Source: Parcubacteria group bacterium (lineage in GTDB: Bacteria; Patescibacteriota; Minisyncoccia; Phycocordibacterales; 21-14-all-47-15). Taken from it: a stretch of 52,447 bases of DNA. The translations under genes and the position numbers were made by a program. Shown here piece by piece: positions 2,988 through 44,242 of the stretch. The stretch spans positions 1 through 52,447 of the forward strand of contig JACOYO010000006.1 of assembly GCA_016181845.1 (NCBI GenBank), read 5' to 3'. Every line of letters starts with the position of its first letter. Positions within the stretch are counted from its first letter, which is position 1. The notes under the pieces are model-generated. The model was not told where the DNA came from and ran no database searches. It was given only the letters and a program-made list of their open reading frames with translations.

Positions 2988-3326
2988 ATGATGAAAAAAT
3001 TATTTATAATCTTTGGCGTTATCGTCATGCCCTCAATCGCGTTTGCGGCCGGAGAACTTTTTACCAAAGTAAGCGAGCTTCTTAATTCAGTTATCCCAAT
3101 TATTATTACCATCGCGGTAATCTATTTCCTTTGGGGGGTTGGTAAATATATAATGTCTTCCGGAGATTCTGAAAAGCAGGAGGAGGCGCGCGGCATGATG
3201 ATTTATGGTATTATCGGCCTCTTTGTGATGGTATCGGTATGGGGGCTTGTCAATATACTTGTCCAAACAGTCGGGCTTGATAGTGGCGCCATTCCTAATC
3301 TCCCGCAGGTACCTTCTACCCGTTAA
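2988..3326 (+). CDS. TrbC/VirB2-like pilin paralog 3
   Basis: Signal peptide MMKKLFIIFGVIVMPSIAFA, then YFLWGVGKYIMSSGDSEKQEEARGMMIYGIIGLFVMVSVWGLV. Followed by its own terminator. Confidence 0.75.
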   Translation: MMKKLFIIFGVIVMPSIAFAAGELFTKVSELLNSVIPIIITIAVIYFLWGVGKYIMSSGDSEKQEEARGMMIYGIIGLFVMVSVWGLVNILVQTVGLDSGAIPNLPQVPSTR

Positions 3327-3404: not shown

Positions 3405-3692
3405 ATGTATATGAATCTCTTTCAAACACCAGTCGCTTACGCCGCAACAGGCATTGAAGACACTATCGGAAAAATCACCAGTAACATCATACAGCCGATT
3501 ATCGGATTTTTGTTTGCGCTTGCGCTCGCTATGTTTCTTTGGGGCATCGTGCAATTTATTGCAAACGCAGAAAATGAAGAAAAGTTAAGCGAAGGCAAAG
3601 AACACATGCTTTGGGGAATTGTCGGCATGGTTATCATGGTGTCGGTCTTCGGCATCATGAATCTCATATGCAAAACCATTGGCGCGTGCTAA
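3405..3692 (+). CDS. TrbC/VirB2-like pilin paralog 4
   Basis: MFLWGIVQFIANAENEEKLSEGKEHMLWGIVGMVIMVSVFGIM has the same two-TM layout. CATAAT at 3392-3397 lies 7 nt before the ATG. Confidence 0.7.
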   Translation: MYMNLFQTPVAYAATGIEDTIGKITSNIIQPIIGFLFALALAMFLWGIVQFIANAENEEKLSEGKEHMLWGIVGMVIMVSVFGIMNLICKTIGAC

Positions 3693-3763: not shown

Positions 3764-3910
3764 GGACGTCCGACCTCTGCAGTGGTAAAACATCGGTATT
3801 GGCTATTTAGACGTCCGACCTCTGAATTGGTAAAACATCGGTATTGGCCACAAATAAAATAATTACCACATCAGAGGTCGGACGTCTCACACATCAGAGG
3901 TCGGACGTCT
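3764..3910 (+). repeat. Palindromic element, copy D: extra left arm, full core (3808-3886) and extra right arm
   Basis: Left arm 3764-3807, full core, then a second CATCAGAGGTCGGACGTCT at 3890-3910. Preceded by an 11-bp hairpin aatcacttgga...tccaagtgatt at 3691-3721. Confidence 0.85.
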
Positions 3911-5475: not shown

Positions 5476-5598
5476 GTGAATTACGAAACGCCGACGAGGA
5501 GACGTCCGGCCTCTGCCGTGGTAAAACATCGGCATTGGCCATAAATAAAGTAATTACCACATCAGAGGCCGGACGTCTTTGCGTTTCGTAATTCAAAG
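5476..5598 (+). repeat. Palindromic element, copy E, with complete outer inverted repeat (core 5499-5578)
   Basis: GTGAATTACGAAACGC ... GCGTTTCGTAATTCAAAG flank the core. Both core arms carry the paired change CCGGCCTCTG / CAGAGGCCGG, versus CCGACCTCTG / CAGAGGTCGG in the other copies. Confidence 0.85.
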
Positions 5599-9206: not shown

Positions 9207-9262
9207 GAATTAGGAAGCAAGAATCAGGAACAAAAAACTGCAAAACAATTTTTTGTAACGGC

Positions 9263-9345
9263 AAGACGTCCGACCTCTGATGTGGTAATTACTTTATTTA
9301 TTATAGCCAATGCCGATGTTTTACCACTGCAGAGGTCGGACGTCT
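9263..9345 (-). repeat. Palindromic element, copy F, inverted orientation, inside the S10 operon between rpsJ and rplC
   Basis: Reverse complement of the core: AGACGTCCGACCTCTGATGTGGTAATTAC...TTACCACTGCAGAGGTCGGACGTCT. Confidence 0.85.
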
Positions 9346-11078: not shown

Positions 11079-11175
11079 CTCCTTACAGGAGCAGTACACC
11101 TTTTGGATATATTTTCGCTTTCGGCTCAAATCTATCTCAAAAGGTCTTGCGCCGCTCCATGTATTCGCGCCGCAA
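11079..11175 (-). repeat. Three-hairpin structured module (H3-CAGTACA-H2-H1 family), stand-alone copy
   Basis: CTCCTtacaGGAG + CAGTACA + ACCTTTTGGATATATTTT..AAATCTATCTCAAAAGGT + TTGCGCCGC..GCGCCGCAA. Same architecture as the units next to tRNA-Leu(GAG) and downstream of rplK. Confidence 0.7.
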
Positions 11176-16146: not shown

Positions 16147-16184
16147 ACTCTTACTATTTTCGCGGTCGCGAAAATAGTAAGAGT
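16147..16184. repeat. 38-bp palindrome ACTCTTACTATTTTCGCG-GT-CGCGAAAATAGTAAGAGT, copy 1, ~115 bp upstream of rpsL
   Basis: Near-identical copies at 43303-43342 (same centre, GT) and 44036-44073 (centre AC, i.e. inverted). Confidence 0.9.
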
Positions 16185-16268
16185 ATGAAAGTCTGTTGAT
16201 GTCTTGTTGGGGTCAAGTTTCAACAGGTTGTGGTCAGACATCAACAGAGTAAGCAACGTGACGGAGTG

Positions 16269-21811: not shown

Positions 21812-21972
21812 GTTGACCACCTCCATTCGAGTAAAAATTTATATTTTATTATTGATGTCAAAGAGATTTTATTTGTTTTAATGTTATCACATAATACAAA
21901 AAAGTCAAGGGGCACCGTGTAATGCGCGCGCACAGAGGACTTTCTCTAGATAGATTATAAGTTCCATTTTGG

Positions 21973-22282
21973 TGCGCGGGAGAGGATTTGAATCTTACAG
22001 ATTCAGTACACCTTTTGGATATATTGCTTCGCAAGCTCGCAATCTATCTCAAAAGGTTTTCAAATCCGCATAACGCTTCGCGAAAGCGAAGCTATGCCTC
22101 CCGCGCATATTACGCTTCGCTCCAATATGCGCGGGAGAGGATTTGAATCTTACAGATTCAGTACACCTTTTGGATACATTGCTTCGCAAGCTCGCAATCT
22201 ATCTCAAAAGGTTTTCAAATCCGCATAACGCTTCGCGAAAGCGAAGCTATGCCTCCCGCGCATATTACGCTTCGCCCCAATA
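21973..22282 (-). repeat. Two tandem 155-bp units immediately 3' of tRNA-Leu(GAG). Each ends in a copy of the tRNA's 3' 22 nt and begins with its inverted complement.
   Basis: tgcgcgggagaggatttgaa starts at 21973, 22128 and 22283, giving a period of 155. The units are ~98% identical and differ at about three positions that I saw. Confidence 0.9.
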
Positions 22283-22366
22283 TGCGCGGGAGAGGATTTG
22301 AACCTCCAAGCCCTTGCGGGCGCTACCACCTCAAGGTAGTGCGTCTACCAATTTCGCCACCCGCGC
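22283..22366 (-). tRNA. tRNA-Leu (anticodon GAG), long variable arm; no encoded CCA
   Basis: GCGCGGG acceptor, CTACC-TTGAGGT-GGTAG anticodon arm, variable arm CGCCCGCAAGGGCTT, T arm GGAGG-TTCAAAT-CCTCT. Confidence 0.9.
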
Positions 22367-22378
22367 AAAATTGTATTT

Positions 22379-36499: not shown

Positions 36500-36576
36500 G
36501 GTTTATTCCTTTTTTTAAGAATCGCTTCTGTTAAAAAACACAGTTCTGTTCTTTGTAATAACATATTTCGACATTA

Positions 36577-36611
36577 AAACAAACTGCCCGCGTATGCGGG
36601 CAGTTTGTTTT
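36577..36611. terminator. Perfect 15-bp palindromic hairpin aaaacaaactgcccgc-gtat-gcgggcagtttgtttt (bidirectional terminator-like)
   Basis: Read directly; A-run and T-run on either side. Confidence 0.65.
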
Positions 36612-36635
36612 AATTATATAATGAAGTTTTTATTT

Positions 36636-36805
36636 CCTTTGAATTACAAAACATCAAGAGGCCAGACTTCTGCATTGATATAAAATCGGCATTCCTTGTT
36701 TAGACGTCCGACCTCTGAATTGGTAAAACATCGGCATTGGCTATAAATAAAGTAATTACCACATCAGAGGTCGGACGTCTTGTCGGCGTTTCGCAATTCA
36801 AAGTT
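36636..36805 (+). repeat. Palindromic element, copy G: outer inverted repeat, degenerate half and full core (36701-36780)
   Basis: CCTTTGAATTACAAAACA ... GCGTTTCGCAATTCAAAGTT flank the core. Confidence 0.85.
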
Positions 36806-37101
36806 ACCTCACTTCAACTCCTTACAGGAGCAGTAGTCACGAATATTTTTCTGTTGAAAAATTTCGCGACCACGACTCACTCGCTCTGGCTCGCTCCGTC
36901 TTTGAATTGCTTCAAGTGTTCGCAATTCAACCTTTTGGACATATTGCTTCGTAAACTCGCAATCTATCTCAAAAGGTCGATTGATGTTTCGTTACCTCAC
37001 ATCAACTCCTTACAGGAGCAGTACACCTTTTGGACTTTTTACTTCGCGCGGCTCGTAAAAATTCTCAAAAGGTCCATCGATGTTTCTTATTTCACATCGA
37101 T
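36803..37101 (-). repeat. Three consecutive hairpin modules of the H3-H2-H1 family, directly downstream of and overlapping the rplK stop
   Basis: GTTACCTCAC(T/A)TCAACTCCTTACAGGAGCAGTA occurs twice (36803, 36991). ACCTTTTGGA...TCTCAAAAGGT hairpins at 36930-36977 and 37024-37072. The terminal hairpin catcgatgt..acatcgatg includes the rplK stop codon. Confidence 0.75.
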
Positions 37102-37506
37102 GCCCATGCTTCGAGCCGTGCCCTCAATAATTTTTGAAGCGGCATCAATGTCGTGCGCGTTAAGATCTTGCATTTTCTTTTCGGCGATTTCTCGGATTTG
37201 CGCTTTGGTCACGCTTCCCGCTTTTATCACTGCGTTTTTTCCGGAACCTTTCTCTTTTCCTGCCGCTTTCAAAATAAGACTTGCCGCCGGCGGTGTTTTT
37301 AACACAAAATTAAAACTGCGGTCTTCAAACACGCTGATTTCAACCGGAACGATATCGCCTTTCATCTGTGCCGTCGCGTCATTAAATCGTTTGACGAATT
37401 CGCCGATATTAATACCCGCTTGTCCAAGCGCCGGCCCTACCGGAGGTGCGGGTGTCGCCGCTCCGCCCGGAATCTGCAATTTAAGTTTTTTTGTTATTTT
37501 TGCCAT
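37087..37506 (-). CDS. rplK: 50S ribosomal protein L11
   Basis: [30 protein letters not shown]. Confidence 0.97.
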
Positions 37507-37521
37507 AAAAATAAATAATTA

Positions 37522-38070
37522 TTACATCTTTTTTACCTGAAGAAAATCGAGCTCAACCGGCGTACTGCGTCCAAACATAGATACCAACACTTTAACTTTT
37601 CCGCGCACCTCGTCAACCTCGCTCACTTTTCCTTCAAGTTCTTTGAAGGGCCCGTCCACAATGGTGACCAAGTCGCCTTCCATGAGGTCAATTTTATGCG
37701 TCGCCGTTTTATCGCCTTCCAGACGAGAAAAAAGTTCGCCGATTTCTTTTTCATCAAGAGGCACCGGGTGCACGCCCGCGCCGACAAATCCGGTTACTCG
37801 CGGCGTATTTCGCACCACATACCACGAATCGTCGGTTACTACCATATCCACGAGCACATACCCCGGATACACCTTCTCTTCCGTTTCCGTGCGCTTGCCG
37901 CCTTTGATTTTAATTTTCTTCTCCGTCGGCACGAGCACATTGAAGATTTTGTCTTCCATGCCGAGTGATTCAATACGCGCTTTCAAATTGCGCGCGACTG
38001 CATTTTCATATCCTGAATATGTGTGAATGGCATACCAATGCCGTTCGTGTTGTGATTCTTGTTTTGTCAT
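37522..38070 (-). CDS. nusG: Transcription termination/antitermination factor NusG
   Basis: WYAIHTYSGYENAV NGN domain and a C-terminal KOW (GDLVTIVDGPFKELEGKV). Confidence 0.93.
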   Translation of the reverse strand: MTKQESQHERHWYAIHTYSGYENAVARNLKARIESLGMEDKIFNVLVPTEKKIKIKGGKRTETEEKVYPGYVLVDMVVTDDSWYVVRNTPRVTGFVGAGVHPVPLDEKEIGELFSRLEGDKTATHKIDLMEGDLVTIVDGPFKELEGKVSEVDEVRGKVKVLVSMFGRSTPVELDFLQVKKM

Positions 38071-43302: not shown

Positions 43303-43342
43303 CACTCTTACTATTTTCGCGGTCGCGAAAATAGTAAGAGTG
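43303..43342. repeat. 38-bp palindrome, copy 2 (downstream of the PaaX-like gene)
   Basis: cACTCTTACTATTTTCGCGGTCGCGAAAATAGTAAGAGTg. Confidence 0.9.
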
Positions 43343-43433
43343 TGAAATTCATAAGACTCACTCTAAGTTCAATGAAATTTACAAAAAATTTACAATGTGT
43401 TTTTAATTTGTTTATGAATTTATTTAATGGTTA

Positions 43434-44035: not shown

Positions 44036-44073
44036 ACTCTTACTATTTTCGCGACCGCGAAAATAGTAAGAGT
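44036..44073. repeat. 38-bp palindrome, copy 3: inverted centre, 21 bp upstream of the PaaX-like ATG
   Basis: ACTCTTACTATTTTCGCGACCGCGAAAATAGTAAGAGT overlaps a TATGAT -10-like hexamer. Confidence 0.9.
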
Positions 44074-44242
44074 ATTTAACATTCAAACATTCGTCTTTCG
44101 TCTTTCAGGCGTTCCGGCTTTCGAGCCGTTCAAGTTTGAACATTCAAGCGTTCAGGAAATTTAATTGTGGTAACAATTTTCGCTTCCTTTATTTTGTCTT
44201 TATCTTTTCTTTCGCCAGTTTACCGTGAAACTAGAGCATAAC

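Follow-up and report, generated by a model that had tools for sequence, protein, structure and literature searches.

A widespread family of structured, modular gene-end cassettes in Patescibacteria

The repeat array downstream of rplK

The stretch of DNA analysed here, 52,447 nucleotides (nt) of contig JACOYO010000006.1 from a Parcubacteria group bacterium (hereafter the window), carries the genes secE, nusG and rplK on its minus strand, followed by a dCTP deaminase gene. An array of hairpin-forming repeats adjoins the end of rplK and belongs to a family of small structured cassettes, further copies of which lie in the window behind a tRNA-Leu(GAG) gene and upstream of tuf, which is preceded by a gene of an HtrA-like protease. 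The best relative of rplK, with 91% identity, was found in a groundwater genome of Candidatus Lloydbacteria (Parcubacteria group, Patescibacteria), and the sequencing runs containing the window are groundwater DNA metagenomes only. The hairpins of the repeated module are designated H1, H2 and H3, and the parts of the array, with the basis of each assignment in brackets, are as follows.

37087–37506, minus strand: rplK, ribosomal protein L11 (Pfam Ribosomal_L11_N and Ribosomal_L11, E 1e-27; list of open reading frames, ORFs).
37075–37102, minus strand: H1 of unit 1, formed by the gene end X1 (CAUCGAUGU), a 10-nt loop with the stop codon and the inverted arm ACAUCGAUG (sequence, minimum free energy (MFE) fold).
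37025–37073, minus strand: H2 of unit 1, with the outer stem ACCUUUUGAGA/UCCAAAAGGU containing a bulged A, the inner stem UUUUUAC/GUAAAAA and the loop GAGCCGCGCGAAG (match of 80 bits to the covariance model R1 described below, fold).
37006–37024, minus strand: linker GUACUG (37019–37024) and H3 (37006–37018, CUCC-UGUAA-GGAG) of unit 1 (covariance model match, H3 covariation).
36981–37005, minus strand: H1 of unit 2, a displaced, diverged rplK end UUGAUGUGAGGUAA (I D V R stop) with its own arm ACAUCAA (sequence).
36930–36977, minus strand: H2 of unit 2, not directly followed by its own linker or H3 (R1 match of 43 bits, covering model positions 7–55 only).
36902–36930, minus strand: extra hairpin UUGAAUUGC...GCAAUUCAA between H2 of unit 2 and core-B (MFE fold).
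36836–36901, minus strand: core-B module, including a long hairpin GUCGCGAAAUUUUUC-AAC-AGAAAAAUAUUCGUGAC with a G.U pair on the minus strand (alignment with the related loci L117, L134, L137 and L155; fold).
36803–36835, minus strand: UACUG linker and third H3 (36818–36830) (weak, degenerate R1 match at 36818–36875, 23 bits; sequence; alignment).

The last codons of rplK, GGC AUC GAU GUG AAA UAA, constitute the 5′ arm and the loop of H1 of unit 1, and the order of the sense strand after rplK is GGCAUCGAUGUGAAAUAA, GAA, ACAUCGAUG, G, H2, GUACUG, H3. An earlier reading of this DNA, made from the sequence only, had stated that the last hairpin includes the rplK stop codon; the stop codon (37087–37089) does lie in the loop, but the hairpin spans 37075–37102 and not 37074–37101. 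H1 of unit 2 is comparable to the second gene-end copies, X(2), of the related loci L004, L042, L107 and L123. A third, oldest remnant of the rplK end, UUGAAGUGAGGUAAC, is located at 36803–36817, after the third H3.

The module and its covariance model

The module was read on the minus strand of the window, the strand on which rplK, tuf and tRNA-Leu read in sense, and its order there is J (CGCAAG or UCGAAA), H2, GUACUG and H3. The covariance model and the scan proposed by the sequence-only reading were carried out: model R1, comprising J, H2, linker and H3, was built from 109 family members and matched both the window and the loci of relatives. Besides the H2-only and degenerate matches listed above, the window contains four full copies of 79–84 bits (11079–11151, 21991–22063, 22146–22218 and 37006–37079). 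The exact H2 flanks, ACCTTTTGGA...TCTCAAAAGGT, occur five times (11098–11145, 22010–22057, 22165–22212, 36930–36977 and 37025–37073). All units fold much better than shuffled sequence, with z of about −5 and none of 200 shuffles equal to them.

The recurrence of the module at 11079–11175, in the tRNA-Leu units and within 36803–37101, noticed before any search, was confirmed with R1, but the last interval holds two copies of H2 and not three. The supposed third copy, at 36803–36915, is a different core (core-B) with a tail of UACUG and H3, and the alignment indicates its homology to the post-rplK elements of L117, L134, L137 and L155.

Conserved fold and covariation

H3, for which other stems were first proposed, is better regarded as a stem of 5 bp capped by an invariant GUA triloop, and all four Watson–Crick pair types are found at its stem positions. 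The inner stem of H2 co-varies in the same manner. The outer H2 stem seems invariant in the alignment because the search pattern imposed conservation; in divergent copies found with the model it also co-varies, as in ACCCUUUGAGGG/CCCAAAGGGU and AUUCAUUGAGAG/UCCAAUGAAU. The number of double-change cells in H2 and H3 is 240 versus 61±6 in shuffles, with none of 500 shuffles as high, and slid controls gave 26–47. The covariation score is 0.31, compared with 0.075 for shuffles and 0.055–0.073 with slid partners; measured by this score of our own against shuffled and slid controls, the covariation expected of a structured RNA in general is significant.

A conserved fold with variable stems is thus borne out for H2 and H3, whose covariation lies far above the controls, while the differences between copies of H1, earlier counted as further stems that change and stay complementary, are not orthologous compensatory changes. 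The loop consensus suggested for H2 is only partly conserved (GAGY-N3-6-RCGAA is strict in 33 of 109 members and loose in 63). H2 most likely serves as a protein-recognition site, and H2 and H3, judged by their sequences, appear to behave like a conserved recognition fold.

Some other readings of the fold were tried and rejected. The junction strands CGAAA, GUACUG and A do not fit hammerhead and other three-way-junction ribozyme cores (compared by eye), and the internal loops of H2 do not fit a kink-turn. Shine–Dalgarno mimicry by H3 (UAAGGAG) was dismissed, the start codon of tuf being about 100 nt away and the H3 stems being variable. Taking the conserved 10-mer pair for a DNA-uptake sequence leaves H1, H3 and the covariation unexplained.

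Distribution of the family

An exact-pattern scan with one genome per species found the family at more than 115 genome loci (a minimum), almost all of them in Patescibacteria/Parcubacteria. Among the names given in the records are Kaiser-, Nomura-, Taylor-, Vogel-, Zambryski- and Lloydbacteria, Paceibacterota and Minisyncoccia; numerous assemblies are entered as "Saccharibacteria", a label that was not confirmed. Among the matches listed, window copies counted, the GTAC linker context is present in 112 of 121. Model R1 found 119 copies in 677 kb of family loci and none in 315 kb of control DNA from proteobacterial and other bacterial loci. A phage origin was considered and rejected, since viral contigs gave no pattern match.

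At the gathering threshold of Rfam 15, tRNAs alone passed in the window and four related loci, and permissive Rfam scans of 36500–37150 and 21950–22300 gave chance-level matches, none of them on the module. The module sequence was not found in the literature searched. With neither an Rfam nor a literature match, the family is apparently undescribed. Identical cores were found in many different gene contexts, and the copies are not simple recent duplicates, as they occupy at least 115 loci in different genomes and show pairing-preserving changes in H2 and H3. The gene-end cassettes, structured and modular, form a genuine and widespread family.

H1 and the duplicated gene ends

At rplK, lepA and tRNA genes, H1 pairs the last 9–24 nt of the gene with an inverted arm that matches them. 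After H3 the gene end appears once more, as a decaying second copy, and the original terminator comes next. ORF-linked copies have the stop codon in the H1 loop, and in tRNA-linked copies the copied stretch extends from the T-loop to the 3′ end. The H1 differences earlier viewed as compensatory changes arise for the most part from pairing to the end of the local gene: at rplK and tRNA-Leu this hairpin is formed by the 3′ end of the gene and an inverted arm matching it.

The frame in L004, L042, L123 and L164 comprises the gene end X(1), the inverted arm rc(X), the core, X(2) and an ordinary Rho-independent terminator. The order X(1), loop, rc(X), core, X(2) and old terminator was observed at rplK in the window and in L004, L042, L107, L123, L164 and L188. 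At the lepA locus L099 the frame is repeated as four units, and in L010 it is located at another ORF, with a 35-nt repeat.

The comparison of rplK loci included 80 relatives, 76 of them with an analysable locus. Core-A stands directly after rplK in about 10 of the 80 and core-B in at least four, and the X(2) copies are of different ages. The two cores and the differently aged copies of X(2) indicate several independent events at the rplK site. A stem of at least 7 bp crosses the rplK stop codon in 15 of the 76 loci; 12 of the 15 possess a core-A or core-B element, as judged by pattern or by reading of the sequence, and the remaining three have no element. Element-free loci generally have stems of at most 5 bp across the stop codon, with an ordinary terminator next, and a 9- or 12-bp stop-codon hairpin was seen in the relatives only where the element is present. 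Because long stop-codon stems go with the element and element-free loci generally have no more than 5 bp, it seems that the H1 arm arrives with the element.

In L137, the arm and X(1) agree at all 12 positions, and X(2) resembles the usual rplK end of the relatives. The distal unit of L099 contains the serine codon TCT and a matching arm, whereas the gene itself has AGT. These two loci, together with the position of CCA in the tRNA-Leu array of the window (see below), suggest that the gene-end copy is brought by the cassette itself.

Flanking direct repeats of at least 10 nt accompany 9.5% of copies versus 0.8% of controls. An ORF stop codon lies within 25 nt of J in 13 of 109 copies, roughly as random insertion followed by purifying selection would leave it; the association with tRNA genes (about 16% of copies) greatly exceeds what such insertion would give. 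No overall enrichment of terminators was seen downstream of the element, and a closing stem between the outer flanks is weakly enriched (p = 0.02).

tRNA-linked units

The tRNA-Leu array of the window consists of an intact gene and two units of 155 nt, which are 99% identical.

22282–22367, minus strand: tRNA-Leu(GAG), the intact gene ahead of the units (ARAGORN; Rfam tRNA, 52.9 bits).
22128–22282, minus strand: tRNA-Leu unit 1 (direct repeat D4 of 99% identity; covariance model match at 22146–22218; 23-bp complementarity to the 3′ part of the tRNA; closed multi-helix fold).
21973–22127, minus strand: tRNA-Leu unit 2, ending in a copy of the tRNA 3′ end that, alone among the copies, has CCA next to it (repeat, covariance model match).

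Unit 1 is composed of a spacer, a complement of the acceptor 3′ strand, H1, a complement of the T-loop and T-stem, H2, GUACUG, H3 and a second tRNA 3′ end. The most distal copy of the tRNA-Leu end is the one with CCA and is therefore considered to be the original gene end. The depth of the 155-nt unit (21973–22282) in four groundwater DNA runs is 2.3–5.3 times that of its flanks, and within the population the array may be of greater or varying length.

In 15 tRNA units, the sequence before H2 is complementary to 13–24 nt of the T-loop, T-stem and acceptor 3′ strand of the upstream tRNA. The complementary stretch reaches two bases beyond the discriminator, and an inherited hairpin, AAAGC..GGGA..GCUUU, usually interrupts it; the stretch from T-loop to 3′ end is repeated after H3. 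Having this arm and the second tRNA end, a tRNA-linked unit can, as modelled, close as a mimic of the acceptor/T-arm minihelix, in which H2 and H3 replace the T-loop. The 12 tRNA-linked copies with a called neighbour tRNA are located about 25–180 nt 3′ of it on the same strand. The 15 units and the window array have the arrangement of elements integrated into tRNA genes, that is, a direct repeat of the tRNA 3′ end with an intact gene at one end, and no integrase gene was found inside the element; the units of 100–155 nt contain no ORF.

Related arrangements were noticed at other loci. On the minus strand of L073 (1800–2720), two tRNA-Met genes are followed by units of the same frame (tRNA 3′ complement, hairpin, second tRNA end) with unrelated cores, so the frame is common to several element families. 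In L089 (3290–3470), L094 (4293–4480), L012, L036 and L040, a 5′ tRNA fragment, reaching to the D-arm or the anticodon stem, is followed by a generic element and an intact like tRNA. A tRNA-Thr(CGT)-like gene of L094 (4486–4612) has an apparent insertion of about 52 nt in the T-loop and was not called by ARAGORN.

Generic copies

The copy upstream of tuf represents the stand-alone, or generic, form of the element.

11079–11175, minus strand: generic copy, flanked by tuf and the gene of the HtrA-like protease (covariance model match of 84 bits; fold z −4.9; Pfam of neighbours).
11147–11175, minus strand: its H1, with the class b loop GAAUACAUGGA.
11146–11151, minus strand: its J, CGCAAG.
11098–11145, minus strand: its H2.
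11092–11097, minus strand: its linker.
11079–11091, minus strand: its H3.

This H1, listed earlier among the complementary stems, pairs at eight of nine positions and has one C.C mismatch; it belongs to a separate, inherited class of H1. A genome scan for empty sites with an HtrA-like neighbour gave only distant proteobacterial homologues. At five other loci (L020:1062, L022:3898, L027:3177, L103:3347 and L018:7373), a long upstream ORF ends within a generic copy. Its stop is the UGA of the conserved GGUGAG or lies within H1, which means that a protein can take its final codons and its stop from the element.

Gene neighbourhood and other repeats

The sequence-only reading had also proposed that the block occupies the place where rplA would normally follow rplK. 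The gene rplA is indeed absent there, but a dCTP deaminase gene is present and the block does not replace it. This idea was rejected because rplA directly follows rplK in only two of the 80 relatives, the other loci having assorted genes, with the element present or absent alike. The absence of rplA is incidental. Protein uL1 is missing from many lineages of the candidate phyla radiation (PMC9297842). A 267-amino-acid ORF on the plus strand (36737–37540), antisense to rplK and running across the repeat block, is almost certainly not a real gene and could lead gene callers astray.

A second repeat family of the window is an 80-nt palindromic element, AGACGTCCGACCTCTG...CAGAGGTCGGACGTCT, with perfect arms of 16–17 bp, which extends to as much as 149 nt with its flanks. 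Its copies are located at 1630–1709, 2292–2371, 2857–2936, 3809–3888, 5500–5579, 9257–9345 and 36702–36781. Four follow four tandem paralogues of a type IV secretion system pilin (1805–2188, 2198–2758, 2988–3326 and 3405–3692), and one adjoins the rplK array. A perfect palindrome, ACTCTTACTATTTTCGCGGTCGCGAAAATAGTAAGAGT, occurs three times (16147–16193, 43304–43350 and 44036–44082) and looks like a repeated terminator-type hairpin.

Proposed nature of the cassettes

We interpret the rplK block as an array of small (about 75–155 nt), non-autonomous, non-coding, modular integrative cassettes that are co-transcribed in the sense orientation, and give this interpretation a probability of roughly one half. 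Co-transcription is expected because the cassette is situated after the stop codon or tRNA end but ahead of the terminator. A cassette with its own copy of the gene end would integrate through strand exchange within that copy, either as a folded single strand with an H1 duplex mimicking the target, or through homologous recombination with DNA that has been taken up, for which the conserved gene would serve as the anchor. If the chromosome and a unit bearing X and rc(X) underwent exchange within X, the product would be precisely X(1), loop, rc(X), core, X(2) and the old downstream sequence. Integration would rebuild the gene end and shift the previous one downstream, and repeated events or unequal crossing-over would lead to polarised arrays. 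The cassette could also fold as RNA. The sequences themselves establish the family, its fold and covariation, its architecture and the joint occurrence of arm and element; regarding the activity of the cassettes, we infer mobility by such an exchange, transcription and the binding of a protein.

A number of results weigh against this interpretation. Clustering of the 686 ORFs surrounding the 115 loci linked no protein family to the element and gave housekeeping genes only, and no transposase, integrase or reverse transcriptase is encoded among the 40 ORFs of the window. Neither empty/filled polymorphism nor alternative joints within one population were seen in the contigs of four groundwater DNA runs. 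No RNA run contains the window, and the metatranscriptomes from the sample of L020 were empty for that locus. Most generic copies lack detectable flanking repeats, and generic H1 hairpins fall into few inherited classes. The first acquisition of a gene end and an inverted arm by the cassette is unexplained, tandem duplication without transposition could be behind some arrays, and the sense-orientation bias and better sense folding would fit a selected RNA function equally well. In addition, a long version containing an ORF, sought as split halves of H2 in 195 loci, was not found, and no circular integration form was observed.

A bolder form of the integrative interpretation is tentative and, on balance, doubtful. 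It supposes a new class of mobile elements homing to gene 3′ ends, around stop codons as well as on tRNA genes, by means of guide-like arms complementary to the target, as folded single-stranded DNA or as RNA, and rebuilding the gene end. The arrays would then be polarised fossil records of earlier gene-end alleles, and a Patescibacteria-wide protein would bind H2.

Alternative explanations

Two alternatives are serious. In the first, the repeat is a selected cis-acting RNA element of 3′ untranslated regions and tRNA trailers, which takes part in processing, stability or 3′-end definition, like the "t-elements"; it would be inherited mostly vertically under selection at the RNA level, and the gene-end copies would be by-products of tandem duplication. 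We regard this as unlikely, though several observations speak for it. Behind tRNA, rplK and lepA genes, the element always stands in the sense orientation ahead of the terminator. The upstream ORF is co-oriented with it in 43 cases versus 14, and the downstream ORF shows no bias (40:36). The sense strand folds more stably in 98 of 105 copies, by a mean of 5 kcal/mol, and H1 loops on this strand are often of the GNRA-like GGGA type. The minihelix-like folding of tRNA-linked units and the two alternative arm pairings permitted by the direct and inverted repeats point in the same direction. The pattern at rplK speaks otherwise: the element has a scattered distribution (in about 14 of the 80 relatives, and in the form of two different cores), sites that lack it work with an ordinary terminator, and the gene ends in L137 and L099 do not come from the resident gene. 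The base pairing also tells against an RNA-only view, since G.U pairs in H2 and H3 are no commoner than A.C mismatches (16 versus 10 of 981 cells). For H1, a strand-neutral stem finder gave 30 G.U versus 21 A.C, which indicates that the count of 108 versus 34 obtained from MFE folds was inflated by flanks.

The second serious alternative, less probable again, is a single-stranded DNA hairpin element mobilised in trans by an unseen enzyme. The latter could be an HUH/Y1 transposase, as in repetitive extragenic palindromes (REP/REPIN) with RAYT or the IS200/IS605-derived "PATE", or a tyrosine recombinase working on a strand in its folded form, as at integron attC and CTX-phage attP. H2 and H3 would be protein-binding hairpins, and TTAC of the H3 loop would be a cleavage or target motif. 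The almost strictly Watson–Crick stems, with very few G.U pairs, fit DNA, and the conserved loop TTACA adjoins the right junction; TTAC is the target of IS608. GTAC is conserved at the foot of H2, and a folded single-stranded circle with X and rc(X), exchanging within X, would yield exactly X(1), loop, rc(X), core and X(2). Nevertheless, the search for a Y1 transposase suggested by the sequence-only reading found none among the 40 window ORFs and none enriched near the 115 loci, and no Y1, RAYT or recombinase gene was detected near any copy when the loci and the 52-kb window were scanned. The hallmarks of REP are absent, and the target duplications are present, unlike in IS200/IS605 elements, which, to our knowledge, make none. 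The earlier statement that the module is either a structured RNA or a single-stranded DNA hairpin recognised by a protein stands as regards the conserved fold, and the evidence on which of the two it is points both ways.

It is improbable that the element is RNA-mediated and guide-like, with arms of the transcript pairing with a target RNA or gene 3′ end, as the internal guide and exon-binding sequences (IGS/EBS) of group I/II introns do, and a cDNA copy being installed at gene 3′ ends. Such a mechanism would suit the left junctions, which fall 0–3 nt behind a stop codon or on the discriminator of a tRNA, the complementarity of the arms to both flanks (through H1 and part of H3), the sense-strand bias, and the tRNA duplications beginning in the T-loop, a possible usual stop of reverse transcriptases. 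No reverse transcriptase was found nearby, however, and Rfam revealed no ribozyme or intron signature; the 13 of 109 copies overlapping stop codons are close to the random-insertion expectation given above, and the tRNA end carried by the cassette has no CCA.

Chance similarity or a few recent local duplications, for which the two 99% identical tandem tRNA-Leu units might speak, can practically be disregarded in view of at least 115 loci, the covariation, z of about −5 and no control matches.

Comparison with known systems

BOX of Streptococcus pneumoniae and the BIMEs (bacterial interspersed mosaic elements) of enterobacteria are modular intergenic repeats (reviewed in PMC2229807 and PMC3184786). 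The cassettes differ from them in their unrelated sequence and other taxon. Both BOX and BIMEs are short, non-coding, multi-copy mosaics of hairpin modules, intergenic, located downstream of genes, co-transcribed and gene-less, and the cassettes are likewise short, non-coding mosaics of hairpin modules after genes, without a gene of their own. We know of no report of a neighbouring gene end with an inverted arm, or of a 14–35 nt duplication of the gene end, in BOX or BIMEs.

REP/REPIN sequences are imperfect palindromes of 20–40 nt with a conserved GTAG or CGTC head (PMC3733652). The cassettes share with them an extragenic position, often after gene ends, palindromes of conserved fold and possible recognition as single-stranded hairpins. 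They differ in having no GTAG/CGTC head (H2 starts with ACCU and ends with AGGU), in comprising three hairpins over 75–155 nt, in their target-matched arms and duplicated gene end, and in that no RAYT was seen among the 40 window ORFs or near the 115 loci. The MITEs of bacteria (miniature transposable elements with inverted repeats), such as Correia, ERIC, RUP and Nezha (PMC3184786), resemble the cassettes in being small, non-autonomous and structured, with flanking duplications, and in lying sometimes inside gene ends. The ends of the cassettes, however, vary with the target, with no constant terminal inverted repeats; the duplications are 14–35 nt versus 2–9, and the arms match the local target and not each other. 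The PATE derived from IS200/IS605 are marked by subterminal hairpins, insertion 3′ of a fixed tetra- or pentanucleotide and the lack of a target duplication; in the cassettes, hairpins and a conserved TTAC(A) by one junction are present, but so are target duplications, and no TnpA or TnpB was found near the loci.

Integrative elements targeting tRNA genes carry the tRNA 3′ end in attP, and the site of CTX phage, used by XerCD, and integron attC are folded single-strand att sites. Similar features of the cassettes are the rebuilt gene, the old 3′ fragment displaced downstream, the duplication starting from the T-loop and a conserved hairpin shape with variable sequence. Their differences are the size of only about 100–155 nt, the lack of an integrase, the presence also at ORF ends (rplK, lepA) and the inverted complement of the target that they carry. 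The t-elements are tRNA-like structures at the ends of plant mitochondrial mRNAs; other tRNA mimics include the bacterial Y RNA/YrlA and mascRNA. The tRNA-linked units, as acceptor/T-arm mimics just downstream of a gene, could similarly be substrates of RNase P, RNase Z or the CCA-adding enzyme. They differ in the replacement of the T-loop by H2 and H3 and in the absence of an Rfam match; most copies of the family are not tRNA-like.

Significance for Patescibacteria

The genomes of Patescibacteria are tiny and streamlined, yet this repeat family is present in many lineages and sits directly on essential genes (rplK, lepA and tRNA genes). The element breaks assemblies and confuses the annotation of tRNAs and gene ends in metagenome-assembled genomes. 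If the cassettes are mobile, they would insert harmlessly into essential genes, because a replacement gene end is brought along, and would leave behind datable remnants of older gene ends. If they are functional RNAs, they would represent a lineage-specific system that processes or marks RNA 3′ ends. In both cases the conserved hairpin H2 offers a handle on a putative nucleic-acid-binding protein of these uncultured bacteria.

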